Positions 46,078 through 64,000 are shown, counted from the stretch's first letter. The stretch: DNA of 64,000 nt from Candidatus Enterousia sp. (GCA_045645065.1 JAZRIB010000005.1:125917-189916), one strand, 5' to 3'. A program made the numbers and translations. The notes: a model not told the origin generated them from the letters alone.

Positions 46078-49000
46078 TTACCACGGCATAAAACCATCAT
46101 TGCACGTACGTTCACATTTCTTAGTGTTTTTATTCCATTTCATTGAACCTGTTTCATCTTCGTACAATTCCATTGGACAGATTGGAACGCATTCGTTATT
46201 TGTTTTATCCAAATTATACAATTCGCCTTGGTATAAACACGTTGCAATCTTACAGCCGCTGCTATAACTGCTTACCGCTTCATCGCCTAATACACTTTTT
46301 GCATTACGGCATCGTCCGCACTGTTTATCTGGCTCATTTGAATCATATGGATTGTTTGTATAACCTGCATCACACGATGTCGCGATACATTCGGTCCATT
46401 TTTTCAAATCTGTATCCCATGTACGTTTACCAATACCATGTTCAATATTACATACAGAAACATTTGGCACACAAGAATTTGATTCTACATGATATCCATC
46501 GGTGCATTCCGATATCTTGCATATTCCGAATGCGCCATTTGTTACATCCCATGTTTGGGTTGCTGCAACAGCATTTGGTGCAACGCATGATTTAACATTG
46601 CTTTCACATTTATCGCCATCTGGATGATATGTTGGTTTGCATGTTGCAACCAGACAATTTCCATTTGCTTTATATTCCAGTGCATTGTCGCGTTCGCATT
46701 TCTGACACCGTCCGTTAATCAATTCATAATCGTATTTACATGATGTTTCTACACATGTTTCAACACCATTAATCGTTCTGATTTCGCACGGATTTAGTGT
46801 TTCAGAAATCCCCTTGTACGTACACATGTCATCATATTGTACAGAATCCATATCACGTATAGCCGTACCACCAAGAATCGGGTAATCCTTACATATCGCA
46901 TAACACTGTTCAATTTTGGTTGAACCTGCTAGTGACAATGTATGCGTACCACCAGACAGCGCGTCACATGTTTGTGGTTTTGCGTCTGCGACACCGTCTT
47001 CGTTCATATCAACACCTGATTCTGTGCCACAAACACTGTTTTCTGGACACAATGTACATTGTGATTTTTCGCCATCCAGATAGAATGTTGCTTTACATGT
47101 TTTGATTTTACATGTGTCTGTCATATTTGCGCCCTGGTAATCACGTCCAAACATACTTGTTGCATTTGTTAATATGTCGCAATCACCAAAGCACTGACCG
47201 TTATCAACAGAACCTTCGTCTGAATTCGGATAACGCCCGTCAAACAGGTCTTTACACAATTGTGGCTTTGCGTTTGCTACACCATTTTCGCCAACGCGTG
47301 TTTGTTCGCCACAAATACTGCCAGATGGACAAATCTTACATGAATTTGTATTCAAGTAATATTTTGTATCACAACGGTTAACCTGACATTCCGAACATCC
47401 CGCAACATATTCCTGGGCAGATATATCATAACCACATGTCTTCAATCCACTGCCGTTTGTAACATTGCATGGCATATTTTCCATAAAGCATGCAGATGCA
47501 TCTGCGCTGAATTCGGTCTGTGTTTTACCCTGTCTTCCATCGAACGATGCGCATGTACCACGTCCAGTGATATAACCTTCGTTTTCAGGATTCGCCACAG
47601 GCCCAAAGAACCCATATCCGACTTTGACACAATCTGTTGCATCAGATTCTGCTTGGTTCCAGTAATACCCTGCGTCGCATTTATGGAACACGCGCGCCGC
47701 GCAAACCGTATAATCCTGTGTTTCTGGCGTGTATCTGCAATAACGAACCCCGCTGCCGTGTTCTGCGACGAATGGATTGTTTGCCTTGTAACACATTGTA
47801 GATACCGCAGCTGTTTCGATATCTGTATCACCACCGTCTGGACATGGTGTTTTATCCAGATTTCCTTCTTCACTATATGCACCATATCCCACCGCATCAC
47901 AATCTGTAGCATCATTTGCTGCACGATAGTATCCACCCTGACATGATGTTATGTGCCATTCGCGACAATTCGTTGCATACCGCGCACTGCCGTCTTCGTT
48001 CTTGGCGGTGTAATTACATACCTGGGTACCTTTACCATACACAGCCGTATAATCGACAGTTTTATAGCATTCACCAACTTCGGATGCTGTTTTAACAGTT
48101 CCTGTGATACCATTTTCTGGGCATGCATAACGTTTTTTATCTGTGTCGGTACTATAATAATTTATACCAACCTCTGAACAATCGATGCCAGATGAATACC
48201 AGTATCCAGCCACACATGCATCAACTGATTGTTCACGACACAAATTATCATACGCGCTTGTACCATAATTACATGTCTGTGTTCCACTTGCTTTTCCTGT
48301 TGTTGACACATATTTCAATCCTTGTTTATAGCATACGCCAATATTTGTTGCGTCAACACCACCACTGGATTTACCACCATCTGGGCATGTGTTATGGCCA
48401 CTTGTAACCCCTGTGTTGGTTGGGAATGTTCCACCCGGACACCAGTGGTCTAATTCGCACACAGAACACACACCGTCTTTGTTTCCGTTATAGTAATATC
48501 CTGGGTCACATATTGTATCGCCTTCGGCCCACATGACGTTGGCATTTGTATCAGATGTTGCAACCGCCAATGCTTTTGCATCTGTTTGTAATGCACCTGT
48601 TGCATCAATGATAACAACATCGTCAACACCATATCCTGCAAAATTCCAGCCTGGCTTGCTTGGTAATGTGCCGTTGTTTATTTGCGTAATCGGTGTTTGT
48701 GCTGATTTATCTGCAAACCAGCCAACCGTATATTTCAAATAGACAGGGTTTTGTGTTGCGTTCACTGTTGCGTCTGCTGCAACCAGTTTAATTTCAAACA
48801 CACCCGGATTCCATGTTGCATACAACGTTATATCTGAACCTGTATCAGATATATTTGCGGACGTTGCCACACCTGCGGAATAACATTTACCTGTTCCATC
48901 TGGATTTTCACACCATTTGCTGGCTGTTACATACCCATCACGTGTCAGCGCATCTGTTTTTGGTAACATACATGCACCGCTATCAAACGTACATTCTACA

Positions 49001-52000
49001 TAATCATTTATGTTACCAGTACCTTGGTTTTTATTTAGTGTAACCTTGTACTTGTTCGCAACACATTTTGGATTTGTGCCGTTTTGTGGTGTGTATCCAC
49101 TTACACACGTTACAGTATAAGAACACGCCGCATACTGACCGTTTCCATTACTAAACGCTTTCTGTTCATTTGCTGTAACTGTTTTACTGTGTTCTACACC
49201 TGATGTTGTTAACGAACATGCGCTATAACAGTTAGCGATATTTGCGCGTGGCAAATCAGAACCGATACCATCACCTGTGGCACCTGTTTCGCCTGGACAC
49301 AAATGAGCCTTTTTACTATTTGCATCTTCAACATCGCCAGACGAAACTGGACCTGGACTGTAATATCCGTCTTTCACAGGCGTACATGCAATTGCACCTT
49401 TATCGGTATAGTAATATCCTGCATCACAACTAAGGGCAATGGCATTACAGTCTTCACGATATATTGCGTTACTATCATCGCCACTGGTATATGCACAATC
49501 CCATTTTGCAGTACCATATTTAAATTCTATATCCGCTGCAATTGCAGTCTTGCGACATTCATATATACTGGTCGCTTGTGCTACGATTGTTGCACCACCT
49601 GCGGGGCATGTTGCAATACATCCTGTGGAACCTTCGTTGATTTTTCCTGTTCCTGGACAATATTTGCCTAATTCACAACGTGTCTTGACACCATTGTTAA
49701 AGTAATACCCAGATTCACAATCAACCATGTTTTGATCCCAGATAGCATACAATGTCATTTCGCCACCATCAGACAGCAAATTCTTGATACTGCCATTAGG
49801 CAAAATCGTTTGTCCCGACCCGTCTGCTTTTGTGTTCCATGCGTTAAAGGTTTTATATTCCATTTGCAACGCATCTGGGGCCTGACATTCTTTGTCATAC
49901 GTACATACAACATCTGGGACATTCAATCCTGTGGCATCTGTTGGATTGAAATGCACTGTAAATGTTGTTGCTTTCCAATTTGCGATAACTGTTGTATCGC
50001 CTGTTGAACCGCTTGCAATCGCATTATTTACAACTTTATCACCCGTCCACTTTTCGAACACATAGCCCGTCTTGGTTGGTGTTAACAATGCAACCGGCGT
50101 ATCTTCAATTGTATACGTTGTTGGATTGCTTGGATTATTATTTCCATCATTCATTGTATATGTAATATCATATACGTTCTTTTCCCAATGCGCATACAAT
50201 ACATCATCTGTTGTAAATGTATTATTTGCAGGAATGTTCATATTGGCGTCTATAATGCGGTTACCACCAGACTGTGCGTCATAATAGCCCAAGAAAGAGT
50301 ATCCCGGACGTGTTGGTTTGTTTAATTTGTTTAACACAGTTGTTGCTGCTGCATTTGTATACCAACCAACTGTATACTTCTGGTAAACAACACCATTGCC
50401 ACCGGAACCTGCATTATCGTCTAATGTTATTTCATATGTTCCTGGCGTACATGTTGCCACATCAGATGCAGACATTGGTGCGCTATACAATGTGCGTTTA
50501 TAACTATATTCAACTTTATCGGTTGTGTTTGCCACATATCCAGGATCACAAACAAATGTGAACGAACAGAACGAAGTCGGTGTACATATAGTTTGTGGAT
50601 ACCATCTATACCCCATTGTTGGTAGCGTTCCTTCGGTACATGTTGCATGTTCAGGACAATGATTAACACTTGTACCTGGTATTACATTACCATCCATATC
50701 TAATACATAATCATTTGCGAAATTACACGTTGGCGAACATCTGCTGTAACACGCGTTTGGACCATTTGATATCGTTGGCATAGATGCCAAACTATACATT
50801 CCTGCTGGCTCTAAATCACTACAAGACGATAAACAATCCGGTTTTTCTGTTGTAATATAATGACGCGCATCGCACATATTGGTGGTACTGTTCGCATCAA
50901 TTTTACACTCGGCGTCTTTTACCGTACATGTATTTGAATTATAGTATTCAATACCAGCTATCTCCTCAGATGTATCGTATTTACATTTAGAGAAATTCGT
51001 CGGGCAACCACTTGGTTCAACGCACAGTTCAGTACATTGTTTGTAGCAGTCTGTTATTTCGTCACTGCCGGCTTCAGAATAGGGGAACGAACCGCCTGTT
51101 TCTGTACCACATGAATATTCTACACCGTTTTTGCAATAACTGTTTGCAGGACATACATTGCTACACTCTGAAACACTGGCCGCAGTATCTTTACCTGTCA
51201 ATGCGCCACCTGGACATGGTGTACGATACACAGAACACCCTGGCTGAGTAGGTTCTTTGTCTTCGCCATCACAATTGGCTTGTGACGGGCTATAGAAACC
51301 ATCGCCAACCGGCACACAATCGTCTGTTGATTTGGTTGTATCCAACCAATATCCTGCATTACATGAAACGACGGTTGCTTGCGTGCAATTTACATCATAT
51401 TTCTTTGAATCATTTGAATAGTAACATTGGCGTCTTTGGAACCCATATGTCGTATAATGAGATAACCCTTTCATTATACACTGTTCGGCACTTTCAGATG
51501 TTTCATAGTTTGTTGTTCCGCGCGTGTTTGTATCTGTATTCAACGGACAATCTGATGCTGTCAAAGAATTTGCAGGACTGTATTTTCCATATCCAACCGC
51601 ACTACATAATACATCCGTTGTATTTTTACGATAATAACCACCCGCACAGGTAATAATGCTTTGATTGCTACAATCCTTGGTATATTCACCTGTATTTACA
51701 TTGTATTTGCATGTCTGACTGCCTGTTGTATAACTGTCTGGGGCATACGCCAAATTCGTTGCATAACAATCTTGGGACGACGTTGATTTTTCTAGAGAAC
51801 TTACCACAACGTTCATAGTTTTACCAGATGCGTCCGTTGCAGCAACATATTTACCATTTAATGATTCACAGGTACTACGTCCACTCTCTGTATTTGTGTC
51901 CTGAACAGTCGTTATACCAACACAATAACTGCCTGATGGACATGGTGTACAAGATGCACCTGTTCCTTTATAATATTCTCCTTTGTCACAGGTTATCTGT

Positions 52001-55000
52001 GGCTTATCAGTCCAGCTTGCTGTAATTGTTTCAGGCCCAGTAAACAATTTGTAATTCGTTGTCAACTTACCCGTTGCATCAATTACTACATCATTCTTGT
52101 TCGACAGATATCCGCCAAAAGTCTTTCCTGATAGTGTTAATGGGCTAACAGACGTTAACACTTGTGAAGTTCCTGCGTCTTTGTACCAACCTGTGTTGTA
52201 TTTCAGATATATTTCATTAACCCCAGATGTAGCACCGTTGTGATTTAACGTTATCTTGTACACAGCTGGCTGACACGACAAACCATTGGCCTCATACCCA
52301 GGATCACAGTTTGCACTATACTTACATTCCTGTATGCGTGTACCGTCGTAATATACTTTATCTGATGTTGGCACCAGTGTTCCATTAACAATATTTTGTT
52401 CCGGACAAGTATTATAACAATCTGACGCCAACGCAGATGTAGCAGTTTCTGTTTTAACTTCGCCAACTGTATTGCTGTTTGACAACGAAGAACATGCTTT
52501 TCTGGCGCCTACGCCATCATTAGCTGCACGATAATAACCAAAACCAACTGGATCACACTTATCACTTGTTCCATCTCTGTAATATCCAGCGATACATGAT
52601 GTTGGCACGATATTACAAGACAAGTTATAAGAAGATGCGGCTGCGTTCCAATTACAGGTCTTATTACCACTACCTGTATTTTGTGTACCATTTGCTGCTT
52701 CGATATCAACCGTTCCTGTGGCCATACACTGTGATATACTATTCGCCCCATTTACAGATGATATTGTTTTACCGGTTGCGGCTGGACATTTTATCATACA
52801 GCCTTTGGTTGTATCGTTTTCTTCACCTTTATTTACTTTATTACCTGGGCAATAGTATCCCGATTGACAATCTGCACCACTGGCATCCTTTCCTGACTCA
52901 CATTGAAATACCCCTAACGCACAACCTGTATCAGTCTTGTTGTAATTTGTATTACATGTCCAATCGTTCGTTCCATCACATGTCGCATGATCAGGGCAGG
53001 TTGTACATGTATTGTTTTTCAACAACAATCCTGTATTACACTTGTTAATTGTCAAAGAACATGTCGGTGCAGTTGCATTACACGCAAAACCATAATACTG
53101 GGTACCGGTCGCTGTTTCTGTGCCATTCGTACAAGACGCCGCGTCACTTGGGCATGTTTGTGGGTTACATGACACTGTACATGACTTAGAACATTTATCT
53201 TTACCATTTGTTCCCCCTGGACATGTGTATCCACTGCCTAATTCAGACGCTGGTTTACACGCGCCATTATCAAGATAGTATCCAGATTGACAACTGGTCG
53301 CTTTACATGTGCTTGTTCCACCTTTGGTAAGTGTACCTGTAACCGCTGTTGCGCCAGACACATCGGATTTTATACAGTCACGATAACATGTGTTGGTATT
53401 GCCACTGCAAATATTATACGTTCCGTTTGTGTATCCTGTAATGCTTGTGCATGATGTTGTACAACTTGTACATGTGCCGTTTAATGGATATGTACCAGAA
53501 CCACAGTTACACCCACCATCTGTTGTCGAATTACATGGGGTCCACTTGGCCCAGAACGTCAATGCAGTTGTACAATTTCCTGTAGCGACGCTTGTAATTT
53601 TATTGCCGCTTAACTCTGCATTATCAAACCAACCATCAAATTTATATCCTGCACGTATAACATTTGTCGGCAAATTAAACGTAGGGGTTTCTACATTACA
53701 CGCAGACATATAATCCCCAACAATCTCACCATTATTTTTATTGTATATGATTGTTTTCTCGCTTTCAGAAACCCACGCTGCTGTCAGTGTTTTGTTTTCT
53801 GCATATTTCCATGTAAATGCTGTACCAGCTGCTTTCTTATCCCCAACACCACTAACGGTCCAGCCATCGAACTTATATCCCTCACGTGAACATGTGTTTG
53901 CCGCTGGGGTGAAACTGCTGTCATATTTTGCAGTTGTTGCAGACGGCGCAGTACCAGAACCATCACCACATGAATACGTTACGTTATATTTACGTGCCGA
54001 ACAGCCTGCCAATGTCCCAGACGCTGAACCCGCTGTACCATATGCTGTGAACGATGGTGTTGTATCTGTATTGCCTGATTTACTGTAACCTGTATTACAT
54101 GTTACTGTGTACTGGCAACGATTGTTTGCTGTATCTGTAGATGCAGAACCTATCGTACTGTTTGCAGCGGCTGTGTACGAACATTTTGCCCACACAGCAT
54201 ACAATTGCACTGAACCACCACATGTCGCAGTCAGGTTCGTAACACTTTGACCGTTCTTATATGTTTCGGACGTTGCGCCACTGGTCGTTGACCAGCCCAA
54301 GAATACATAACCATCACGTGTAAATCCATTAGAGGTTAATGTTTTACCACTGTCATATGTGTGCGTGCTGGACGCTGTTGTCCCAGAACCACCGTTAGCA
54401 TTGTATGTTACAGTATATGTACATGGGGTGTATTTACATGTATCATCGGCACTCTTATAGTCACGACCAGATTTTGTATAACCCGTCTTGTCTGCGCAAC
54501 TTGTATAACAGTATCTTTCGCCATTCGCATCATTGTCATGGCTTGGATATGATGAGTCACACTTTGTACACTTACCACTGCCCAACCATGTATTGTTTGT
54601 ACATGATGTTGCTGTACAGCTACTTGGGGCGGTCGCACCATAATAGAACTTACCTGTTACCGCGCCACTGTTTGATACATCGGTTGTCGAACAAGAACGA
54701 TAACACGTGTTGACTGTATCCCTGTTGCCGTCTGATGCCGTATAATCTGCGCCTGCTTTCGTTGTACATGAATCACATGTCGCAGTGTATCCACCACCAT
54801 TGTTGGTTGCGCTTCTGGTGGCTTTATAGTAACCGCTGTTACATGACCATGTGATATTACATACGTTATTAGAAACTTTTGCGCTACAACCTATGGCACT
54901 GGTGTCATTTGTACACGTACACTGCGACCACTGGGCATACAATGTTTTATTCGCTGTAAATGTTGTATTCGCAGGCAGGGCACCGGTCGCCGTAATACGT

Positions 55001-57468
55001 TGAGTACCACCAGATGTTTCTGTGTAATAACCCTTAAATACATAACCATCACGTTTTGGTATCGCAACAGAACTTATTGTTGTGCCAGAACTGTTCGTCC
55101 ATTTGGTGTTATATACTTCCTTGACTGTACCAGAACCACCCGTTCCGTTATTGTCGTTCAACGTAATCGTATATGTATCTGTATTCCATGTACCTGTGAT
55201 AGTAGCAGTACCGCTAGTTACACCCAAGTTTGTACTGTTACATGTTACAGATGCACCTGCATCAAACGTCTTGCTATTTACAGACCATTTGCCAAACGTA
55301 TAACCTGTCGCAGTCATCGCAGATGGCATTGTAAAGTTGTTGCCATATATACAACTACTTGGGCTTGTTGGTGCTGTACCATGCCCGCCATTCTTCCAAG
55401 ACAATGTAATTGTGTTCGCACCACATGATGTATTTGCTTGATATCCTTCTGCACATGTCCAGATGGCTGTAAATGTCACAGTGCCACTGGTTGAACGCAG
55501 ATTCTTAAAACTGGTAGCTTTTGTGCCGCTAATACTGCTGTCTGTGGTGGTCTGACTGCCATATGTATGTGTCACGCCATCCATACCTGTAATTTTCCAG
55601 CCCGCAAACGTACCATGCGTATGTGTTGGATTATCTACAGTAAACGCCGTGTCATACTTGGCACTGGTTGGATGATTTGTGCCATATGAACCATCATTTA
55701 ACACATATGATACTGTATATGTATTCTCCGTCCACTGGGCTGTAACAGCCGAACTTGTGCCACTGTATACACCAAGTTTTGTATAATTACATGTCACAGA
55801 TGTACTTGCAGATTGTACCGTTCCATCCGCCAATTTCCAACCGCCAAACGTATAGCCTGTACGTGTTGGTTCCGCAGGCAAAGTCAACGAACCGCCATAC
55901 GTACAACTGCCATTGGTTACAGACGAGCCACCGTTTTCATTATAATCAACAGTAATGCTGTTAGCTGTACATGCCGGTGATGTGTTTGTGCCAGTCGCTG
56001 CAGCACCTGTAAACGTTCCAGATGTCTTAAAACCATTCGCACAGGTATAGCTATATGTACATTTGTTGCTTGATACGCCCGTAACCGAACACTCACTTAC
56101 ATTGCCACCCTTAGTACATGCACACGCTGACCACTGGGCTGTCAATGTAATAGCAGATCCTGTACTTACATTCTTCAAACTACCGCCAGCTGCAATTATA
56201 TCACCATCACATGCAGAGGTACCACCTGTACATTTCCAACCAGTAAATACATAGTTCGTTCTGGTATATGTATTCGCTGGGGCAGTGCAGGCCGCATCAT
56301 ATGTACAGCTTGTCGGGCTGGTCGGTGCAGTTCCACCTGTGTTGCCGTTCCCAGCATAACTGATAGTAAATGTATTCGCCTTACAAGTATCTGTTGCGCT
56401 GTAATAATTACGTCCAGAATAACCCGTGCCACAACTTGTAAAGCAGTATGAACTGGTAATACTACCGCCATCTGAACTTGGATAACCGCTTGGACATGCT
56501 GAACATGTTTTGTCACGACCCGAACCGGTTACATACGAATTTGCCTTCGCGCTATATGTCGATACTTCCGTTGCTGTACCATTATACTGGCCGGTTGATG
56601 AATTATAGTTCACTAACATACCACCACTTGAACAGTATGTACTCTTCTGTGTCGCTGAGATATTGATATAGCAATCATCAATCACATCCGAACCAGAATC
56701 TGACGACACGCTTGACCATTCTGGATCAGTTGGACATTCGCTGCGTGTCACACTGTCCGCCGGTGAATAGTACCCCGAACCAACAGGAACACATGCATTG
56801 GCCAACAACGCTGTTGCTGTCTTTTCTTCATCATACACAGGTTCCGAATCTGCAGATAATGTCACATTATAATAACCGGCATCACACTTCAAGTTATAAC
56901 GATGGATTTGACATGATCTGTTCGTTCCATTGACACCATAGGTATCTGCGTCACTATCGACATAACACAAGTAAATTCCCAAAGAACCATGATCCACCAA
57001 ATCAACCGCGTCAAAGACAGCATAACAACTGCTACGTTCAACATGCAGCTCACCCTCCTTCCCCGAATTATTATAGCTCAAAATCCCTGACTGTGTTGAT
57101 GTTGGACATGGTGTACATGACGTCTGACCTTCGTTTGCAGCATACGTCGCATTGATACATTTTGACTGGTATGTGTTACCTGTCTTACTTACATAGTAAC
57201 CCTTTGACGCTTTGATACATGATGTTTTACCTGTATCTGGCTGGTATGTACCCGCCGCACATGGTGTAAGTCCTTGGATTCCGCCATTAGATGTCCATGT
57301 TCCACCAAGACAATAATAACCAGCTTCACAATCTCTACATGTTGTACCATTCAAATACTGCCCCGCAGAACATGAATACGAATTCGCCGCAGACACATCG
57401 CCGATGAACAAATTACCAGCAAAAATCAAACCGAAAATTATCGTAAAAATACGCAGAATTCTAGACAT
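46078..57468 (-). CDS. Giant (3796 aa) secreted cysteine-rich mosaic surface/extracellular protein with Listeria-Bacteroides-type repeats and eukaryote-like Cys modules
   Basis: Uninterrupted ORF. ATG 57468 is preceded by an AAGGAAAG RBS and starts a classical signal peptide (MSRILRIFTIIFGLIFAGNLFIGDVSA). At least 12 units carry ...NGG...GYxFxGW... Many CxxCPxGxYC, CxAGYY and VGxGxYS motifs are present. The ORF-track start 57666 lies in a non-coding leader. Confidence 0.9.
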   Translation of the reverse strand: MSRILRIFTIIFGLIFAGNLFIGDVSAANSYSCSAGQYLNGTTCRDCEAGYYCLGGTWTSNGGIQGLTPCAAGTYQPDTGKTSCIKASKGYYVSKTGNTYQSKCINATYAANEGQTSCTPCPTSTQSGILSYNNSGKEGELHVERSSCYAVFDAVDLVDHGSLGIYLCYVDSDADTYGVNGTNRSCQIHRYNLKCDAGYYNVTLSADSEPVYDEEKTATALLANACVPVGSGYYSPADSVTRSECPTDPEWSSVSSDSGSDVIDDCYINISATQKSTYCSSGGMLVNYNSSTGQYNGTATEVSTYSAKANSYVTGSGRDKTCSACPSGYPSSDGGSITSSYCFTSCGTGYSGRNYYSATDTCKANTFTISYAGNGNTGGTAPTSPTSCTYDAACTAPANTYTRTNYVFTGWKCTGGTSACDGDIIAAGGSLKNVSTGSAITLTAQWSACACTKGGNVSECSVTGVSSNKCTYSYTCANGFKTSGTFTGAAATGTNTSPACTANSITVDYNENGGSSVTNGSCTYGGSLTLPAEPTRTGYTFGGWKLADGTVQSASTSVTCNYTKLGVYSGTSSAVTAQWTENTYTVSYVLNDGSYGTNHPTSAKYDTAFTVDNPTHTHGTFAGWKITGMDGVTHTYGSQTTTDSSISGTKATSFKNLRSTSGTVTFTAIWTCAEGYQANTSCGANTITLSWKNGGHGTAPTSPSSCIYGNNFTMPSAMTATGYTFGKWSVNSKTFDAGASVTCNSTNLGVTSGTATITGTWNTDTYTITLNDNNGTGGSGTVKEVYNTKWTNSSGTTISSVAIPKRDGYVFKGYYTETSGGTQRITATGALPANTTFTANKTLYAQWSQCTCTNDTSAIGCSAKVSNNVCNITWSCNSGYYKATRSATNNGGGYTATCDSCTTKAGADYTASDGNRDTVNTCYRSCSTTDVSNSGAVTGKFYYGATAPSSCTATSCTNNTWLGSGKCTKCDSSYPSHDNDANGERYCYTSCADKTGYTKSGRDYKSADDTCKYTPCTYTVTYNANGGSGTTASSTHTYDSGKTLTSNGFTRDGYVFLGWSTTSGATSETYKNGQSVTNLTATCGGSVQLYAVWAKCSYTAAANSTIGSASTDTANNRCQYTVTCNTGYSKSGNTDTTPSFTAYGTAGSASGTLAGCSARKYNVTYSCGDGSGTAPSATTAKYDSSFTPAANTCSREGYKFDGWTVSGVGDKKAAGTAFTWKYAENKTLTAAWVSESEKTIIYNKNNGEIVGDYMSACNVETPTFNLPTNVIRAGYKFDGWFDNAELSGNKITSVATGNCTTALTFWAKWTPCNSTTDGGCNCGSGTYPLNGTCTSCTTSCTSITGYTNGTYNICSGNTNTCYRDCIKSDVSGATAVTGTLTKGGTSTCKATSCQSGYYLDNGACKPASELGSGYTCPGGTNGKDKCSKSCTVSCNPQTCPSDAASCTNGTETATGTQYYGFACNATAPTCSLTINKCNTGLLLKNNTCTTCPDHATCDGTNDWTCNTNYNKTDTGCALGVFQCESGKDASGADCQSGYYCPGNKVNKGEENDTTKGCMIKCPAATGKTISSVNGANSISQCMATGTVDIEAANGTQNTGSGNKTCNWNAAASSYNLSCNIVPTSCIAGYYRDGTSDKCDPVGFGYYRAANDGVGARKACSSLSNSNTVGEVKTETATSALASDCYNTCPEQNIVNGTLVPTSDKVYYDGTRIQECKYSANCDPGYEANGLSCQPAVYKITLNHNGATSGVNEIYLKYNTGWYKDAGTSQVLTSVSPLTLSGKTFGGYLSNKNDVVIDATGKLTTNYKLFTGPETITASWTDKPQITCDKGEYYKGTGASCTPCPSGSYCVGITTVQDTNTESGRSTCESLNGKYVAATDASGKTMNVVVSSLEKSTSSQDCYATNLAYAPDSYTTGSQTCKYNVNTGEYTKDCSNQSIITCAGGYYRKNTTDVLCSAVGYGKYSPANSLTASDCPLNTDTNTRGTTNYETSESAEQCIMKGLSHYTTYGFQRRQCYYSNDSKKYDVNCTQATVVSCNAGYWLDTTKSTDDCVPVGDGFYSPSQANCDGEDKEPTQPGCSVYRTPCPGGALTGKDTAASVSECSNVCPANSYCKNGVEYSCGTETGGSFPYSEAGSDEITDCYKQCTELCVEPSGCPTNFSKCKYDTSEEIAGIEYYNSNTCTVKDAECKIDANSTTNMCDARHYITTEKPDCLSSCSDLEPAGMYSLASMPTISNGPNACYSRCSPTCNFANDYVLDMDGNVIPGTSVNHCPEHATCTEGTLPTMGYRWYPQTICTPTSFCSFTFVCDPGYVANTTDKVEYSYKRTLYSAPMSASDVATCTPGTYEITLDDNAGSGGNGVVYQKYTVGWYTNAAATTVLNKLNKPTRPGYSFLGYYDAQSGGNRIIDANMNIPANNTFTTDDVLYAHWEKNVYDITYTMNDGNNNPSNPTTYTIEDTPVALLTPTKTGYVFEKWTGDKVVNNAIASGSTGDTTVIANWKATTFTVHFNPTDATGLNVPDVVCTYDKECQAPDALQMEYKTFNAWNTKADGSGQTILPNGSIKNLLSDGGEMTLYAIWDQNMVDCESGYYFNNGVKTRCELGKYCPGTGKINEGSTGCIATCPAGGATIVAQATSIYECRKTAIAADIEFKYGTAKWDCAYTSGDDSNAIYREDCNAIALSCDAGYYYTDKGAIACTPVKDGYYSPGPVSSGDVEDANSKKAHLCPGETGATGDGIGSDLPRANIANCYSACSLTTSGVEHSKTVTANEQKAFSNGNGQYAACSYTVTCVSGYTPQNGTNPKCVANKYKVTLNKNQGTGNINDYVECTFDSGACMLPKTDALTRDGYVTASKWCENPDGTGKCYSAGVATSANISDTGSDITLYATWNPGVFEIKLVAADATVNATQNPVYLKYTVGWFADKSAQTPITQINNGTLPSKPGWNFAGYGVDDVVIIDATGALQTDAKALAVATSDTNANVMWAEGDTICDPGYYYNGNKDGVCSVCELDHWCPGGTFPTNTGVTSGHNTCPDGGKSSGGVDATNIGVCYKQGLKYVSTTGKASGTQTCNYGTSAYDNLCREQSVDACVAGYWYSSGIDCSEVGINYYSTDTDKKRYACPENGITGTVKTASEVGECYKTVDYTAVYGKGTQVCNYTAKNEDGSARYATNCREWHITSCQGGYYRAANDATDCDAVGYGAYSEEGNLDKTPCPDGGDTDIETAAVSTMCYKANNPFVAEHGSGVRYCRYTPETQDYTVCAARVFHKCDAGYYWNQAESDATDCVKVGYGFFGPVANPENEGYITGRGTCASFDGRQGKTQTEFSADASACFMENMPCNVTNGSGLKTCGYDISAQEYVAGCSECQVNRCDTKYYLNTNSCKICPSGSICGEQTRVGENGVANAKPQLCKDLFDGRYPNSDEGSVDNGQCFGDCDILTNATSMFGRDYQGANMTDTCKIKTCKATFYLDGEKSQCTLCPENSVCGTESGVDMNEDGVADAKPQTCDALSGGTHTLSLAGSTKIEQCYAICKDYPILGGTAIRDMDSVQYDDMCTYKGISETLNPCEIRTINGVETCVETSCKYDYELINGRCQKCERDNALEYKANGNCLVATCKPTYHPDGDKCESNVKSCVAPNAVAATQTWDVTNGAFGICKISECTDGYHVESNSCVPNVSVCNIEHGIGKRTWDTDLKKWTECIATSCDAGYTNNPYDSNEPDKQCGRCRNAKSVLGDEAVSSYSSGCKIATCLYQGELYNLDKTNNECVPICPMELYEDETGSMKWNKNTKKCERTCNDGFMPW
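53885..53994. repeat. Inter-paralog DNA cassette, copy in giant 1 (partner 63891-64000)
   Basis: Hand alignment gives 102/110 identical nt. It encodes RKYNVTYSCGDGSGTAPSATTA.Y.SSFTPAANTCSR. Confidence 0.8.
54097..54166. repeat. Inter-paralog DNA cassette, copy in giant 1 (partner 59846-59915)
   Basis: Hand alignment gives 67/70 identical nt. It encodes ANSTIGSASTDTANNRCQYTVTC. Confidence 0.85.
54436..54514. repeat. Inter-paralog DNA cassette, copy in giant 1 (partner 60617-60695)
   Basis: Hand alignment gives 77/79 identical nt. It encodes ...CADK(T/P)GYTKSGRDYKSADDTC... Confidence 0.85.
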
Positions 57469-57586
57469 TCTTCTCGCTTTCCTTTCTCTTTTACCATAAT
57501 CATAGAAAAAACAAGGCACTTTGCACAAGCAAAAAACGCTCTTTTCAACAAAAAAAATTAATTTGACAGAACGTTTTGCTGTTGAC

Positions 57587-57616
57587 TTTTTTGAAAATTG
57601 AATTTTTTCAAAAAAA
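57587..57616. repeat. AT-rich palindrome in the giant-gene intergenic region
   Basis: TTTTTTGAAAA (57587-57597) and TTTTCAAAAAAA (57605-57616) are reverse complements flanking TTGAA. Confidence 0.5.
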
Positions 57617-57625
57617 CACAACGCA

Positions 57626-57648
57626 GGGTGGGGGACAATACCCCCCCC
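57626..57648. repeat. G-rich/C8 hairpin with an 8-nt homopolymer tract upstream of giant gene 1
   Basis: GGGTGGGGG (57626-57634), ACAATA, then CCCCCCCC (57641-57648). This is a G8 run on the coding (minus) strand, 173-180 nt upstream of ATG 57468. Confidence 0.8.
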
Positions 57649-57703
57649 AAGGCAAATGTCATCCATGTCGCTATTATCTATTCATTAAATGAATAATCCA
57701 AAT

Positions 57704-57751: not shown

Positions 57752-60700
57752 TTATTGCCAATCGTTAACAACCGAATACGTTGTCGATCCGTTTTTAACT
57801 TTCAGCGCACCACTCAACGACGTGCTTAACGCGCCATAGAATGTTGTATCACCAACCTTGACACGCAGTGACGGTGTTGAACGTTCCGCGCTGCGCAAGT
57901 ATATTGTACTACCACCTGCGTGCAACTTGCGCCCACAGTCCGCCGCCTCGTTTGCACACGCACCCGAACCACATGTCACCAGTCCTGTTCCACATGCCGT
58001 ACGTGTCAAACTATCTGCTGCTGACCAGTATCCAGTTGTAACCGGTTTACACACATTACCCTTTAGCGTGGTTGCTGTCCCATTTGTATTATTACCAACG
58101 CCCGCCGCATAATAATATCCACTGGCACAACTATTCGCCTGCTGATATACCCAGCAACTGCTGAAATCGCCTGCTGTGCTTGAATACTGACAATAAACCT
58201 GACCATCATAATTACCTGTATCGTCCGCAACTGGTTCGTTCATACGCACCTGACAACCATCAATTGTGTCATGAATACCATCTGCGACCCAATACTGTTT
58301 GCCCAGCACCTTACTTGAATAAGTTTCATATGTCGGACAACTCCTACACGATGTCTGCTTTGTTGCATCCTGATACGTCGCACCGGTACATGCTGTCTGG
58401 GTTGTTTTACCCGTACCACTTACATGATACCCTGCAGACGCATCAATACACGAAGTCTTACCTGTTTCTGGCTGGTATGTACCCGCATCGCACAGTGTAC
58501 GTCCCTGTTCATTTGCATTGTACGAATATGTTACTTTTGTACTTGGGCAATATGAACCGGCTGGACATATCGTACATGATGTTTTACTACCTTGGACATA
58601 ATATCCCGCTTCACATTCAAAGCTTTGCAATAAACATGCATCCCCCGACGTTTGTGTTGCGCCACCAACTGTACCACCAACTGTATAGTTTGTTAAGCAT
58701 GTACATGTTGACGATGCGTTACCTGCGTTGGATGTACTGTTTGATGGACACGCAGAACAGCTTATTGTTGCGCCACTTTGGGTTGGTTTATACGTATTCT
58801 GGGCACAGGTTCCAGCATATGTACACGAATTAGTCCCCTTGGTTACAGAACAACTTGCCGCGTTTGTACCCTTTACGCATGGTTTACAATCCCATGAACA
58901 TGTGCTGGCGGTTGTTGCGCCACTGGTCCATTGACCGTTTGTTGGCAACCCAGAACACGGACTGCACGAAATACTGGACGCAGACGTATTCTTATTATGG
59001 TTTGCATTATAGTAACCATTGTTACATACGTGTTTGTACTGACATACATTGTTTACTACGCCTACAAACGTTGCACTGGCTACATTCGATCCCTTTGATG
59101 CCGATGCACATGGTGACCACTTTGCATAAACAGTAAGTGTTCCTCTGTCATGAATTGTGCCTGATGTACCAGTAATTTTAATGGTTGGTACACCTGTTGC
59201 AGTAATGACTTCATCCCATCTTTCGCCATCAAAGTCCCCGCCGTTGTTTAAACAATCGTAGAGCCCTTTGCCATTTTCCGCACACCAATCAAACTCATAC
59301 CCTTGGAATACATAGCCTGAACGTGTTGGTATTGCAACCTTGGTTATATAGTTCTTGGCACTATTCATCAAAGCGTACTCTCCGCCGCTTCCTGTGATTG
59401 GTGTAAAGTCCCCAGATGCATGAAAGTCAACATAAACCGTACCAGAACCGCCCGAACCACCATTATCATTCAATGTAACTTTCAGATAACGTCTGGCCCA
59501 GACTGGGGTCAACGTTAATGAATCGCCCGTTGCCAATCCCTTCAGATTATCGCCCGGTCTAACAACACTTTCACCATCGCATGGTTTTGTGCCGCCTGTA
59601 CATTTCCAGTTGACAAAGAAATAATCTGATTTTTCAAATGTATTTTCCGGCACGATGCAATCGCCACTGTACGTACAACTTTTCAACGATGGTTCCGAAC
59701 CGCCTGTTGCGCCATTGTTATCATAGTTCATTGCAAAAGTTTGTTCCGAACAACCCGCCAATGTCCCAGACGCAGAACCCGCTGTACCATACGCTGTGAA
59801 CGATGTTGTTCTGTCTGCACCACCATTCTGGCTGAAACGTGTGCTACATGTTACCGTGTACTGGCAACGATTGTTTGCTGTATCCGTAGACGCAGAACCT
59901 ATCGTACTGTTTGCACCGGCTGACCATGCGCACTGGGCCCATTGTGCCGTCAATGTGATGGTTGTTCCTGTGCTGGCGTTCTTGATATTTCCGCCAACGC
60001 CCGGCATTCCACCGTCACAGATAGTATTACCACCTGTACATTTCCAACCCGCGAACACATATCCTGAACGGGTATATGTATTTGCCGGAACGATACAGTC
60101 TTTATCGTACGTACAGCTGGTCAATGCTGTTGGTGCAGAACCACCTGTTGCACCATTGCCATTATACGTTACGCTAAACGTGTTGGCCTTACAACTTGGG
60201 GTTGCAGTGGTTGCATTGCTTACCGTATACCCATCTTCACACGTTGCGCTATATTTCGCAGTACCATCACTGTTAATGGTTAAAGAACATGTACCGTGAG
60301 TTGGTTTCACACAATTCGTCGCCCATGCTGCATACAAATTCGTATTTGCACTAAACGTTGTGTTGCTTGGCAACGCCCCTGTATTTGTTATACGACGTGT
60401 GCCACTGCCACCACTTGACGTCAAATCAGCTTGTTTCGTGGTATAGAACCCACGGAACGTAAAGCCATCACGCGACGGTATTGATGCCTTATCCAATGAT
60501 GATGTTGCACCACTGTTGCTGTACCAGCCCGTTGCATACTTTTCGTATATCGTCGAATGCGTTGCGCTGTCGTTATAATTACGCAATGTAATCGTGTATG
60601 TATTCGGCTTATACTCACATGTATCATCGGCACTCTTATAGTCACGACCAGATTTTGTATAACCCGGCTTGTCTGCGCAACTTGTAAAACAGTATGCATC

Positions 60701-63700
60701 ACTAATATTACCGCCATCTGAACCTGGGTAAAGATATGAACACGATGCACATGTCTTATCACGACCTGAACCTGTTACATATGCTCCACTTACTGCTTTA
60801 TATGTATTTGATTCATTTACTGTACCGGTGTAACTACCCGCGGTTGCATTATAATATACCATCATACCACCACTTGAACAGTACTCACTTTTCGTTGTTG
60901 CCGTGATACCAACATAGCACTGCGTTGCTTTGGTTGCTTTTGCATCAGACGCAACTGGCCATGTGCTATCCGGTGGGCATGTCATGCGTCCTTGGATTCC
61001 GCCATTATATGTCCATGATGTTTCCGGACAATAATATCCCGACTCACAATCTTTACATGTTGTACCATCCAAATACTGCCCCGCAGAACATGTATATGTG
61101 TTTGCAGTCCATTTACCAATGAATGTTGCTGTACCACTGGCCACACCTAAATCAGCTTTGGTACAATTAACAGTTGCGCCACTTGCAAATGTCTTTGCAT
61201 TAATTGCCCAACCACCAAATGTGTATCCTGTGGCACTCATTGCGGACGGCGCAGAGAATGTCGTACCATATGTACAACTGGTTGTAGCAGATGGTACTGT
61301 GCCATGACCCCCATTTGTCCATGCCAGTGTAATAACATTTGGCTGACATGAATCATCAACTACATGATAACCTTCGTTACATGTCCATTTTGCATGCAAG
61401 GCTTTATTACCTGTTGAACCCTTTGCAATCTGGGTAATTTTGTTTGTGAACGCAGATTCTGTATACCAACCACCAAACGTACTGTTTGCACGTGTTGGTG
61501 TGCCCAACACGATTGTTGGTGTTGTTACCTGATACGTTTTTGGCGCATCAGCATAGTTCGTACCACCATTCAACGTATATGAAATCGTATATGTCAACAC
61601 TGTTCCTGAACACATACTATTACCGTTCAAATCAGATGGTGTACATATTGCCTGTTCGTAACCACCACTTGGTGTTGCCGTTGCTGTACCGCAAATACCC
61701 TTGTCTACGGTTGGTGTACAACTTTTAACGCCAACGCCCAAAGAACATGTACAATCGTCACCCCAAATCGCATACAGCGTAACACGCGCATTATTTACAC
61801 TTATTACATTTGTGACGACCTCTGCGTTTGTGTACTGTGGTGTACCGATATTTGTTCTGGACCATCCTAAGAATCGTTTCAATCCATTAGAATAACCATT
61901 TGTTATCAACGCTTTGGGTTGATCATATGTATGGGCGCTTTCCAGCATTTTACCGTCACCACCATTTGGATCAAACACGATAACATATGTAACTGGTGTC
62001 CATTGTGCTGTTACCGCCGTAGAATTACCACCATACGTCCCCAGGTTTGTATTATTACAGGTCACAGAATCACCGGCTTTTTTGATTGAACCGTCTGCCA
62101 ATTTCCAACCGTCAAAGCCATAACCTGTACGGCTTGGTGCGCTTGGCAATACCAATGTACTGTTATATGTACATGATCCATTATCTATGATACCACCTTC
62201 GTTTTCGTTATAGTTAACAACGATTTCACGTGGGTTACATTTTGTACCATCTGTACTTTTTACATAACCATTGTTACATGTAAAGCTCAATGAACATGTC
62301 AACTGGCTTGCATTACATGTACCGTTATAATTTTCACGACCCGAAGATGTCGATGTTCCATGTGTACATGTCGCATGTAATGGACATGTTTGCTGTGTAC
62401 ATGCCTTTGTACAGTCTTTATAACAGTCTGCCTTTGCATCTGAGCCTGATTCGCTTTTTGGATGTGTTGATGGACATTGATTTTGTTTCGACGATGTTGA
62501 ATTTTCTGGACAGTAATATCCACTTTCACACGTACCACTACACGCCGCTGATGTCATACCTTTCTGGGCGCCATATGTACCACCTGGACACGCAATACAT
62601 GCTGTTGCTGCTGATGAACCAGTCAACGCATTATACGTACCAATTCCACATTCTGTGCGACCAGCAATCATGCCATAGTATACTTTTGAACCACCATTCG
62701 GACAGAACGATCCCTTTGGACAAGTAGTCTGTGCGCCACCTTCTGTTCCGACGTATTTACCTGTTTCCAAGGTCAGGTAACAATCAGCCGATGATGTTGA
62801 ACCTTCTGTACTGCTGTTATACCCATTCCCCAAGCCAGAGCATGTATTTGCCCCCCATGATTCATTGTATGTACCACTGCTGCACACTGGCACAGTACCA
62901 CCCGGACAGTATGAATTCGCAGGACATTTAACCGCTTTTCTATACAGCATACTATTCGTTGTTGTATTACAATACGTGCTGCTGTAACGTTCTGTCAAAT
63001 AATATCCAGCCTTTACATTAGACGTATATATACTACCTTGGTCTGTATCGTATTTACCAGTAGTTGAATCATATGCCATAGATTCAATGGTAAATGTCGC
63101 ACACGGTGTTGATACACGCATACCACTTCTACATTGTGTAATCAAACTTGTACCTGTTGCAGACCAACTGTGGAAGTACGCACTTTCTATCGATGAATTC
63201 GATGCTGTTGCTGTCGGGCAACGTTCTGTCAACCAATCCATATCAGACAATGATTCTTGATACGCACTGTTTGTTGGATCCGGACAGCTTTTTTTGCTGC
63301 TTGTATTTGGATAATACAATGTTGTTGCCGGACAGTAATTATTTACCTCACAAAGTGTCTGTGACGTTGCGTCTTTGGATGCGATATAGAATCCACCAGA
63401 CGTTGTGAAATAACAATCTTCTGCTGCATCCGACCCCGCCTTACTGTTTTTATACAGTCCTGGGCATGTTTTTGCACTGCTTGAACCTTCTGGGCAATAT
63501 GTACCTTCTGAACACTGTGCCACAGACGAACCATTACATACATAACCCGCCGGACATGCTTTCCATTCAACATAGAATTTCTTGTTGCCTGTTGAACCCT
63601 TTGCAATCTGGGTTGTAACTGTTCCAGATGCACTTTCTGCATGCCATGCAACGAACTGATAACCCGCCTTGTATGGTGTCGGCAAATTGAACGTAGTCGA

Positions 63701-64000
63701 CGTTACATCATATGACGATGGCGACAATGACATTGTGCTGGACCCGTCATAGTATGTAATAGAGTAGGTGTTCAAATTCCATTTCGCAGTCAATGTTTTA
63801 TCTGCTGCATATTTCCATGTGAACGCTGTGCTTGCTGCTTTGACATCGCTTGTGCCACTAACCGTCCAGCCCGCAAACGTATATCCCGTACGTGAACATG
63901 TGTTTGCTGCTGGGGTGAAACTGCTGTTATATGTTGCAGTTGTCGCAGACGGCGCAGTACCACTGCCATCACCACATGAATACGTTACATTATATTTACG
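57752..64000 (-). CDS. Giant secreted cysteine-rich mosaic protein 2, paralog of giant 1; 5' end outside window (at least 2082 aa)
   Basis: The reading frame stays open from 63793 to 64000 (own translation: RKYNVTYSCGDGSGTAPSATTATYNSSFTPAANTCSRTGYTFAGWTVSG...LTAKWNL). The ORF-track M at 63793 is an internal TTG. It uses the same two module types as giant 1 and has a Cys-free 59-aa C-terminal tail. Confidence 0.9.
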   Translation of the reverse strand, partial: RKYNVTYSCGDGSGTAPSATTATYNSSFTPAANTCSRTGYTFAGWTVSGTSDVKAASTAFTWKYAADKTLTAKWNLNTYSITYYDGSSTMSLSPSSYDVTSTTFNLPTPYKAGYQFVAWHAESASGTVTTQIAKGSTGNKKFYVEWKACPAGYVCNGSSVAQCSEGTYCPEGSSSAKTCPGLYKNSKAGSDAAEDCYFTTSGGFYIASKDATSQTLCEVNNYCPATTLYYPNTSSKKSCPDPTNSAYQESLSDMDWLTERCPTATASNSSIESAYFHSWSATGTSLITQCRSGMRVSTPCATFTIESMAYDSTTGKYDTDQGSIYTSNVKAGYYLTERYSSTYCNTTTNSMLYRKAVKCPANSYCPGGTVPVCSSGTYNESWGANTCSGLGNGYNSSTEGSTSSADCYLTLETGKYVGTEGGAQTTCPKGSFCPNGGSKVYYGMIAGRTECGIGTYNALTGSSAATACIACPGGTYGAQKGMTSAACSGTCESGYYCPENSTSSKQNQCPSTHPKSESGSDAKADCYKDCTKACTQQTCPLHATCTHGTSTSSGRENYNGTCNASQLTCSLSFTCNNGYVKSTDGTKCNPREIVVNYNENEGGIIDNGSCTYNSTLVLPSAPSRTGYGFDGWKLADGSIKKAGDSVTCNNTNLGTYGGNSTAVTAQWTPVTYVIVFDPNGGDGKMLESAHTYDQPKALITNGYSNGLKRFLGWSRTNIGTPQYTNAEVVTNVISVNNARVTLYAIWGDDCTCSLGVGVKSCTPTVDKGICGTATATPSGGYEQAICTPSDLNGNSMCSGTVLTYTISYTLNGGTNYADAPKTYQVTTPTIVLGTPTRANSTFGGWYTESAFTNKITQIAKGSTGNKALHAKWTCNEGYHVVDDSCQPNVITLAWTNGGHGTVPSATTSCTYGTTFSAPSAMSATGYTFGGWAINAKTFASGATVNCTKADLGVASGTATFIGKWTANTYTCSAGQYLDGTTCKDCESGYYCPETSWTYNGGIQGRMTCPPDSTWPVASDAKATKATQCYVGITATTKSEYCSSGGMMVYYNATAGSYTGTVNESNTYKAVSGAYVTGSGRDKTCASCSYLYPGSDGGNISDAYCFTSCADKPGYTKSGRDYKSADDTCEYKPNTYTITLRNYNDSATHSTIYEKYATGWYSNSGATSSLDKASIPSRDGFTFRGFYTTKQADLTSSGGSGTRRITNTGALPSNTTFSANTNLYAAWATNCVKPTHGTCSLTINSDGTAKYSATCEDGYTVSNATTATPSCKANTFSVTYNGNGATGGSAPTALTSCTYDKDCIVPANTYTRSGYVFAGWKCTGGNTICDGGMPGVGGNIKNASTGTTITLTAQWAQCAWSAGANSTIGSASTDTANNRCQYTVTCSTRFSQNGGADRTTSFTAYGTAGSASGTLAGCSEQTFAMNYDNNGATGGSEPSLKSCTYSGDCIVPENTFEKSDYFFVNWKCTGGTKPCDGESVVRPGDNLKGLATGDSLTLTPVWARRYLKVTLNDNGGSGGSGTVYVDFHASGDFTPITGSGGEYALMNSAKNYITKVAIPTRSGYVFQGYEFDWCAENGKGLYDCLNNGGDFDGERWDEVITATGVPTIKITGTSGTIHDRGTLTVYAKWSPCASASKGSNVASATFVGVVNNVCQYKHVCNNGYYNANHNKNTSASSISCSPCSGLPTNGQWTSGATTASTCSWDCKPCVKGTNAASCSVTKGTNSCTYAGTCAQNTYKPTQSGATISCSACPSNSTSNAGNASSTCTCLTNYTVGGTVGGATQTSGDACLLQSFECEAGYYVQGSKTSCTICPAGSYCPSTKVTYSYNANEQGRTLCDAGTYQPETGKTSCIDASAGYHVSGTGKTTQTACTGATYQDATKQTSCRSCPTYETYSSKVLGKQYWVADGIHDTIDGCQVRMNEPVADDTGNYDGQVYCQYSSTAGDFSSCWVYQQANSCASGYYYAAGVGNNTNGTATTLKGNVCKPVTTGYWSAADSLTRTACGTGLVTCGSGACANEAADCGRKLHAGGSTIYLRSAERSTPSLRVKVGDTTFYGALSTSLSGALKVKNGSTTYSVVNDWQ
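59846..59915. repeat. Inter-paralog DNA cassette, copy in giant 2 (partner 54097-54166)
   Basis: Hand alignment gives 67/70 identical nt. Confidence 0.85.
60617..60695. repeat. Inter-paralog DNA cassette, copy in giant 2 (partner 54436-54514)
   Basis: Hand alignment gives 77/79 identical nt. Confidence 0.85.
63891..64000. repeat. Inter-paralog DNA cassette, copy in giant 2 (partner 53885-53994); runs off the window
   Basis: Hand alignment gives 102/110 identical nt. Confidence 0.8.

Follow-up and report, generated by a model that had tools for sequence, protein, structure and literature searches.

What kind of domain is repeated, again and again, in the giant proteins of a gut bacterium with a genome of less than 1 Mb, and is its fold a new one? 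We address this question for a window of 64,000 nucleotides from Candidatus Enterousia sp. (GCA_045645065.1 JAZRIB010000005.1:125917-189916), whose minus strand carries two adjacent genes for very large proteins, here called giant 1 and giant 2. A reading of the sequence alone had pointed to a cysteine-rich module recurring in the C-terminal half of giant 1 and proposed that it might be a new disulfide-stabilised repeat fold. That the module is a domain family unassigned by current libraries is supported by our analysis; that it is a new fold is not. Our best explanation, to which we give a probability of about 0.7, is that the module is a lineage-restricted, undescribed variant of the TNFR/ephrin-receptor-like/Cin1 class of cysteine-ladder repeats with an added hairpin, probably serving as a stiff stalk unit in giant surface proteins. 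Its C-terminal ~60 residues (C.AGYY......C..VG.GYYSP.....R..CP..G.T........C) would be a diverged repeat of that class, and its N-terminal ~30 residues (Y....G.G.Q.C.Y......Y...C) an added beta-hairpin with a cysteine pair of its own.

A six-cysteine module recurs in two giant proteins

Copies of the module were located first with the regular expression C.[ASG]G[YF][YWH] and then with a hidden Markov model (HMM) built from the copies themselves. Giant 1 contains eight full copies of a six-cysteine module of ~90 amino acids (aa) and one ten-cysteine terminal variant, and giant 2 contains a single copy, which agrees with the at least seven copies with conserved cysteine spacing, and at least one in giant 2, proposed from the sequence alone; the seven strings quoted there are all present in giant 1 at module positions. 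A further copy that had escaped the list lies outside the range given there (window positions 47300 to 52750), at aa 211-317 (Table 1). The element G(T/S)QxCxY...Y..C, described as preceding each module, is present as well, and it belongs to the same module rather than forming a separate element in front of it. When each copy was scored with a model built from the other copies, so that circularity was avoided, the full copies of giant 1 reached 37-54 bits (E 1e-9 to 5e-15 among the genome's 5724 six-frame open reading frames, ORFs), with 33 bits for the copy in giant 2 and 29 for the terminal variant. When each copy was shuffled 200 times, the highest score was at most 15 bits. Across the 0.97-Mb genome the HMM matched no ORF besides the two giants.

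The C-terminal half of giant 1 contains a repeating cassette of one to three Flg_new units, a canonical six-cysteine unit (C..GYY.....C..C...YC...CP.GG......CY) and one to three modules, with no linker between consecutive modules. The Flg_new units are the Listeria-Bacteroides-type repeats that had been seen to interrupt the array: Pfam PF09479 (Flg_new) recognises 12 stretches of giant 1 (E 7e-65) and 8 of giant 2 (E 2e-45), TIGR02543 (List_Bact_rpt) matches the two proteins at E 8e-31 and 2e-26, respectively, and our own Flg_new HMM places units in giant 1 at aa 428-918, 1077-1380, 1798-1889, 2406-2647 and 2868-3050.

Two further elements recur in this layout. The array-ending variant module (47176-47499, minus strand, and its orthologues) keeps a CxxC...xC pair and has extra cysteines near model positions 13 and 39; this class of variant recurs across orthologues and looks like a capping unit of each module array. 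A short hairpin motif, C.Y...C..GY....C, regularly stands before each Flg_new block of giant 1 (for example at aa 1780-1797, 2370-2385 and 2846-2867) and looks like the N-terminal hairpin of the module (Q.C.Y......Y...C.......C.AGYY) reduced to a minimum.

The module is conserved within one bacterial family

A word-indexed search with aa 1960-3400 of giant 1 found 37 giant proteins, 2100-4400 aa in length; where they have a name, it is 'MAG: InlB B-repeat-containing protein [Alphaproteobacteria bacterium]'. All 28 of the strongest homologues (E 1e-115 or better) carry 4-14 module copies, and among the nine weaker matches a single protein (P0034) has one; full modules number 2 to 11 per protein. 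From 150 copies, reduced to 111 at less than 80% identity, we aligned 104, which yield the consensus CYK....Y....G.G.Q.C.Y......Y...C.......C.AGYY.......DC..VG.GYYSP.....R..CP..G.T...T......C, in which the final cysteine is the first cysteine of the following module. All seven cysteine columns are kept in 385 of 403 full-length copies from 175 proteins. The scaffold residues (cysteines, glycines and aromatics) are conserved, and the loops vary among copies and species.

How far does the module reach? Searched against 1.84 billion representative proteins, the module alignment gave 603 matches at E<=1e-3, 196 of them at E<=1e-10. Within the top 167 proteins, a full-length module occurs at least once in 114, and the matches of the remaining 53 lie mostly over model positions ~35-97; Flg_new-like units occur in 94 of the 114 full-module proteins versus 3 of the 53 half-only matches. 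At the level of genomes, sampled from the family, order and class, 80 of 121 from the window's own family, Rs-D84, spanning five genera, match at E<=1e-8, and the full module was found neither in 29 genomes from five other families of the order nor in 298 other Alphaproteobacteria from ~200 families (E<=1e-6). Neither these proteins nor the module turned out to be described in the literature that we searched, which covered Enterousia, Rs-D84 and ephrin-receptor-like giants of bacteria.

The C-terminal part of the module is related to known repeats

Pfam-A and NCBIfam report only Flg_new and List_Bact_rpt on the giants, apart from a sub-threshold Ephrin_rec_like match in giant 2 (15.9 bits), which has no equivalent in giant 1. 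No Pfam scan assigned the whole module with confidence to a furin-like or VSP family, and the view that current libraries leave the module unassigned stands. Submitted in isolation at E<=10, 24 of the 104 modules gave sub-threshold matches to Ephrin_rec_like (best E 9e-4); module 7, for instance, scores 15.5 bits (E 0.015) against PF07699, for which the gathering cut-off is 23.1 bits, and no module reaches that cut-off. A profile search of PDB sequences found the Chlamydomonas mastigoneme protein Mst1, itself an Ephrin_rec_like protein, at E 0.013 and over model positions 33-95 only.

Several better-known cysteine-rich families were considered and set aside. Sushi/CCP domains (PF00084), to which C.aGYy......C bears a likeness, match only 6 of the 104 modules, all below threshold (best E 7e-4); PDB sequence matches to CD46 and beta2-GPI range from E 0.3 to 9, the structures matched by Foldseek include no CCP, and the gain and loss of module cysteines in pairs indicates sequential pairs rather than the 1-3, 2-4 disulfide pattern of CCP. 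Furin-like, Giardia VSP and EGF families (PF00757, PF03302 and the EGF models) are absent from the giants and from the 25 listed of the 26 families matched by the 104 modules at E<=10. The TNFR model (PF00020) gives no match, one module matches TNFR_ELAPOR1_6th at E 1.7, and TNFR2, DcR3 and DR5 appear in Foldseek at E 0.15-5.

Several of the half-only proteins carry the Pfam labels Cin1_N, DUF7397, Sortilin_C, Dumpy_DPY or Ephrin_rec_like, and one comes from the green alga Raphidocelis. Their repeats follow the pattern C......C.AGY.......C.....HYSP.....R..CP.............C with a ~60-aa period, and the module profile detects proteins labelled Cin1_N, Ephrin_rec_like, DUF7397 or Dumpy_DPY at whole-library E-values down to 1e-53. 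Aligned by hhalign, the module and Cin1-type repeats match with a probability of 96.1% (E 3.6e-9, 44 columns, module columns 37-83), a value somewhat inflated because the Cin1-type alignment was drawn from Pfam-labelled Cin1_N proteins that had themselves been selected by the module profile. The Cin1_N model (PF20738) itself is not among the 25 listed of 26 matched families. Within the giants, the canonical C..C..YC units align with the module column for column. Taken as sequence relationships, these results identify module positions 35-97, about two thirds of the module at its C-terminal side, as homologous to Cin1-type and Ephrin_rec_like repeats.

Ephrin_rec_like (PF07699, formerly GCC2_GCC3) occurs in Mst1, Elapor1 and the Eph cysteine-rich region and, like the module, combines C..GxY......C......GxY.......CP.G with an elongated cysteine ladder and long extracellular arrays. 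The fuller Ephrin_rec_like pattern, C..C..G.Y.....C..CP.G......C, is present in the canonical units that flank the arrays; what the module retains of it is C..[V]..G.Y[S].....C.P.G......C. Unlike Ephrin_rec_like, the module has a period of ~90 aa, owing to a hairpin of ~30 aa that has been inserted and brings two additional cysteines. The Cin1 repeat (PF20738) is the repeat of cellophane-induced protein 1 of Venturia. Together with similar ~60-aa four-cysteine repeats of metagenomic RCC1_2 proteins, it aligns to module positions 35-97 through a shared unit, C.aG(Y/F).......C.....hYSP.....R..CP........T..GL....C, and with the module profile such proteins obtain E-values of 1e-53 to 1e-28. These Cin1-type repeats differ from the module in lacking the N-terminal hairpin, in their ~60-aa period, and in a protein context without Flg_new units.

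Predicted structure and cysteine pairing

AlphaFold2 predicts module 7 alone, using the module alignment, with a mean pLDDT of 94.6 and a pTM of 0.81, as antiparallel strands at residues 7-13, 17-28 and 34-48 followed by the short bridges typical of cysteine ladders. A 345-aa fragment comprising a canonical unit and modules 6-8, predicted from 21 aligned sequences (pLDDT 93.0, pTM 0.58), shows the single-module strand pattern three times, with no low-confidence linkers. Against the PDB, Foldseek with the single module returned nothing at E<=1e-3 (best TM-score 0.47), its weak leaders being thyroglobulin, TNFR2 and the cysteine-rich domains of CaSR and EphA2 (all at E >0.1), together with the sweet-receptor cysteine-rich domain, Elapor1 and Mst1. 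With three modules the leading PDB matches were Elapor1 (E 3.9e-4) and Mst1 (E 2.7e-3; probability 0.92-0.93), then EphA4 and DcR3, the Ephrin_rec_like proteins Elapor1, Mst1 and EphA4 falling between E 4e-4 and 5e-2. Viral structures gave no match at E<=1e-3. The TNFR domains of TNFR2, DcR3, DR5 and GITR and the CaSR/sweet-receptor domain share with the module an extended ladder of small disulfide-closed hairpins; they differ in Foldseek values of E 0.1 or worse, TM-scores of at most 0.4, cysteine spacing and the lack of a Pfam TNFR match. Judged from the models, then, the structural neighbours are all of the TNFR/ephrin-receptor-like class and none fits the whole predicted module well; for its N-terminal three-stranded sheet no counterpart was identified.

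Which cysteines would pair? Model positions 62 and 68 are mostly valine and serine in the module, and both are cysteine in the canonical unit before each array and in the array-ending variant. In 403 full copies the two positions covary, with both cysteines in 21, neither in 379 and a mixed state in 3, and CxxC...C is thus replaced by CxxV...S in 94% of copies. Because the two cysteines covary and the canonical unit and variant keep both, the most economical reading is that 62-68 was an ancestral disulfide, lost as a pair in the main module type. Judged by register, the second and third cysteines (C2 and C3) face one another across strands 2 and 3, and three copies have lost both of them, so that C2-C3 of the N-terminal hairpin is probably a pair. 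Every array has, before its first module, the segment CP...(~16 aa)...C with which the canonical unit ends, and for this reason C6 most likely pairs with the first cysteine of the next module (C1'). We infer a topology of three sequential local disulfides, C2-C3, C4-C5 and C6-C1', which would make the module a Cin1-/Ephrin-type four-cysteine unit minus one disulfide and plus a ~30-aa hairpin insert with one new disulfide. The added N-terminal beta-hairpin and the loss of one disulfide are the only features particular to the lineage.

A probable disulfide-braced stalk and its rivals

What might such a module do? Candidatus Enterousia is listed by NCBI under Alphaproteobacteria and placed by GTDB in the order Rs-D84, whose members are predicted to be fermentative, without respiration and most transporters, and to obtain metabolites from other cells as obligate symbionts or parasites (PMC12306168). 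In such an organism the giants would be exported by Sec and their cysteines then oxidised in the periplasm by a DsbA-like CGYC protein. The hairpin would form a three-stranded sheet with the strand that follows the last cysteine of the previous module, and successive modules would make up rod segments, stiff and resistant to proteases, by which the remaining domains are spaced and held outwards in the giants, which are probable adhesins holding a metabolically dependent bacterium to a partner cell or host surface. A disulfide-braced stalk is suggested by the linker-less tandem modules, their alternation with Flg_new blocks, and structural neighbours that include the filament-forming Mst1. The genome encodes a DsbA-like/Thioredoxin_4-like protein that is anchored in the membrane at its N-terminus and has CGYC as its active site (contig C9:105512-106411, plus strand, outside the window), the only disulfide-oxidase candidate found in it. 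Oxidation in the periplasm followed by export of the folded protein is possible, given the signal peptide, the DsbA-like protein and the encoded BamA, two TolC-like proteins and one secretin. We consider oxidative folding of the modules plausible; the export route of the giants and the means of DsbA re-oxidation are unproven.

Several points weigh against this explanation. The predicted pairing derives from covariation and strand register, not from S-S distances. Inter-module geometry, and with it the rigidity of the rod, is uncertain given a pTM of 0.58 for three modules. Foldseek TM-scores of 0.13-0.47, with one match at E<=1e-3, are low, and the fold-class assignment leans on sequence profiles; low TM-scores are expected for flexible rods. 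The hhalign probability is, as noted above, somewhat inflated. Neither DsbB nor VKOR, which would re-oxidise DsbA, was found in the 95%-complete genome, a gap in an organism that has no respiratory chain and lives in the anoxic gut. Finally, the analysis establishes that the module exists and is conserved, its predicted fold class, the homology of its core to known repeats, the covarying cysteine pair and the restricted distribution, while disulfide formation, rigidity, surface location and a role in adhesion are putative, with architecture and lifestyle suggesting the function of the giants.

Could the fold nevertheless be new and unrelated by descent to known cysteine repeats? None of the Pfam and NCBIfam models attains its threshold on the module, the single-module comparisons with PDB and viral structures are empty at E<=1e-3 (best TM-score 0.47), and no counterpart of the N-terminal sheet was identified. 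We nonetheless regard this as very improbable, because positions 35-97 match Cin1_N and Ephrin_rec_like proteins with strong whole-library E-values and with Cin1-type repeats at 96% in hhalign, the canonical units share the module's columns, and the structural neighbours all belong to one class of TNFR/ephrin-receptor-like arrays. The converse view, that the module is an ordinary Ephrin_rec_like, furin-like or VSP-type repeat with nothing distinctive, missed by Pfam through divergence, draws on the sub-threshold Ephrin_rec_like matches and on Mst1, Elapor1 and EphA as nearest structures. It is distinctly unlikely in our estimation: the unit is ~90 aa rather than 40-50, the half-only relatives lack the conserved extra hairpin (G.G.Q.C.Y......Y...C), the CxxC...C pair is missing from nearly all copies, no furin-like, VSP or TNFR model appears among the families listed at E<=10, and in the genomes searched only a single bacterial family has the module at full length.

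Other alternatives concern function rather than ancestry. The modules might be receptor mimics that bind ligands in the manner of TNFR or Eph and recognise host or partner-cell molecules, instead of forming a passive stalk; their fold class does bind ligands in TNFR, DcR3 and Eph, and a conserved scaffold with variable loops, in 2 to 11 full modules per protein, would suit recognition. Yet no sign of any ligand emerged, the same class builds purely structural filaments such as the Mst1 mastigoneme, and linker-less tandem arrays are typical of spacers, all of which leads us to rate mimicry as unlikely. In a more ambitious version the hairpin-plus-ladder would have originated within the Rs-D84 lineage as a domain family of its own, possibly derived from a eukaryote-like cysteine repeat. 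It would act as a bacterial counterpart of the TNFR or Eph cysteine-rich receptors, a specific recognition surface for docking to a particular partner cell or host ligand, with the variable loops setting partner specificity; this seems to us a longer shot still. That the cysteines are not disulfide-bonded in this anaerobe at all, and instead bind metals or carry out redox chemistry, could be argued from the anoxic gut, the missing respiratory chain (PMC12306168) and the undetected DsbB and VKOR. We give this idea hardly any credence: giant 1 has a signal peptide, a membrane-anchored DsbA-like oxidase with a CGYC site is encoded in the genome, and the one CxxC motif of the module has been lost. 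Moreover, the beta fold is predicted with confidence and its cysteines are placed as cross-strand and hairpin pairing would require, and the cysteines are gained and lost in pairs and lack the His/Asp partners typical of metal sites.

The giants resemble the giant repeat adhesins (InlB B-repeat/Flg_new) of genome-reduced or host-dependent bacteria in being very large and secreted, with many Flg_new units, and in coming from an organism predicted to depend on other cells. They differ in being cysteine-rich (6.3%) and in using eukaryote-style cysteine ladders, an unusual choice for adhesins of bacteria, in most of which the repeats are Ig-like, cadherin-like or beta-helical. The module opens no new kind of biology; it adds a bacterial case of such ladders and a clean example of paired disulfide loss. 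In the guts of humans and animals, Candidatus Enterousia and its relatives are widespread. They are uncultured, have genomes of less than 1 Mb and are thought to live off other cells, and the giants are likely central to this dependent lifestyle, since the two adjacent genes take up ~2% of the 0.97-Mb genome. A defined domain family would improve the annotation of hundreds of 'InlB B-repeat-containing' giants, and for this one the model is confident, the consensus clear and the boundaries are known; the module could serve as a handle, through antibodies or recombinant fragments, for identifying what these bacteria attach to.

Genes, starts and neighbourhood of the giants

Giant 2 is a second giant frame directly upstream of giant 1 in the direction of transcription; in the whole assembly (21 contigs, 95% complete) it has at least 2595 aa and reaches the contig end. 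A search of this assembly for 16S rRNA gave no match. The homologues of giant 1 all begin with MGK(I/K)R..FL...SFA, aligned to residue 67 of its longest ORF (MSRILRIFT...), equivalent signal-peptide N-termini are present in 13 orthologues, and a purine-rich stretch lies 5' of the ATG at 57468. Because the orthologues start there with a signal peptide, and the purine-rich stretch precedes the ATG, residue 67 is most likely the true start. The first 66 codons of the longest ORF (57469-57666, minus strand) are then probably untranslated, and the purine-rich stretch would be ribosome-binding.

Table 1. Giant genes, modules and interleaved units, in window coordinates
Feature	Position	Strand	Remarks
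Giant 1, longest ORF	46078..57666	minus	3862 aa; ORF list and translation
Giant 1 gene from likely true start	46078..57468	minus	~3796 aa; upstream ATG at 57666 gives longest ORF
Sec-type signal peptide of giant 1, MSRILRIFTIIFGLIFAGNLFIGDVSA, followed by ANSY	57388..57468	minus	read from sequence; putative cleavage site
Giant 2 gene	57752..64000	minus	open at window edge
Giant 2 module copy, aa 1914-2011 of window-frame translation	57968..58261	minus	70 bits; leave-one-out 32.8 bits
Module copy 1, aa 211-317	56716..57036	minus	HMM domain 64 bits; leave-one-out 42.5 bits; long insert in C4-C5 hairpin
Module copy 2, aa 1649-1733	52468..52722	minus	HMM and leave-one-out
Flg_new (Listeria-Bacteroides) unit, aa 1798-1889	52000..52275	minus	Pfam and own HMM
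Canonical cysteine unit (C..GEYY.....C..C..GSYC...C...CY) before modules 3-4	51778..51999	minus	keeps CxxC...YC pair
Module copy 3, aa 1964-2048	51523..51777	minus	HMM and leave-one-out
Module copy 4, aa 2060-2159	51190..51489	minus	HMM and leave-one-out
Three Flg_new units, aa 2406-2647	49726..50451	minus	Pfam, NCBIfam, own HMM
Canonical cysteine unit before module 5, aa 2648-2703	49558..49725	minus	
Module copy 5, aa 2704-2798	49273..49557	minus	HMM and leave-one-out
Two Flg_new units, aa 2868-3050	48517..49065	minus	own HMM
Canonical six-cysteine unit, aa 3051-3108 (CDPGYYYNGNKDGVCSVCELDHWCPGG...CPDGG...CYK)	48343..48516	minus	gives module 6 its first cysteine; in three-module AlphaFold2 model
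Module copy 6, aa 3109-3190	48097..48342	minus	HMM, leave-one-out; in AlphaFold2 fragment
Module copy 7, aa 3197-3283	47818..48078	minus	HMM, leave-one-out; modelled alone by AlphaFold2
Module copy 8, aa 3289-3380	47527..47802	minus	HMM, leave-one-out; in AlphaFold2 fragment
Terminal variant module, aa 3390-3497	47176..47499	minus	19-29 bits; keeps CxxC...xC pair, further extra cysteines

Apart from the Sec peptide, no anchor or secretion signal was identified on the giants, and a comparison of both C-termini with all ORFs of the genome found no shared sorting domain. The last ~70 aa of giant 1 (46078-46290, minus strand) are strongly conserved (...YQGE.YNLENNEC.PIC......DETG...W.....KKC.R.C..GY..W), and an invariant tryptophan terminates this type of C-terminal end in all 14 giant proteins inspected; judging by its conservation, the segment may be a functional or anchoring end. 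The genes around the giants are ordinary housekeeping genes, encoding an amidase, TsaD, XseA, AlaRS, RNase J, trigger factor, Lon and SecA.

The two giants also resemble each other outside their modules. An internal segment of giant 2 (59400-59560, minus strand; ~aa 1464-1515 of the contig-length protein) is 58% identical to the start of giant 1, where the matching part is signal-peptide-proximal (57280-57470, minus strand; ANSYSCSAGQYLNGTTCRDCEAGYYC...), and near-identical Flg_new cassettes (RKYNVTYSCGDGSGTAPSATTA...) are common to both proteins. This resemblance and the shared cassettes suggest past exchange between the two genes.

Cysteine-rich frames are not limited to the giants. Another 24 six-frame ORFs of more than 250 aa have at least 4% cysteine, which is unusual for a bacterial genome of 0.97 Mb; they lie on contigs C2, C3, C5, C7, C9-C12, C17, C19 and C20, and the one at C17:44606-45529, with 9.4% cysteine, shows ~59% identity to the mature N-terminus of giant 1.

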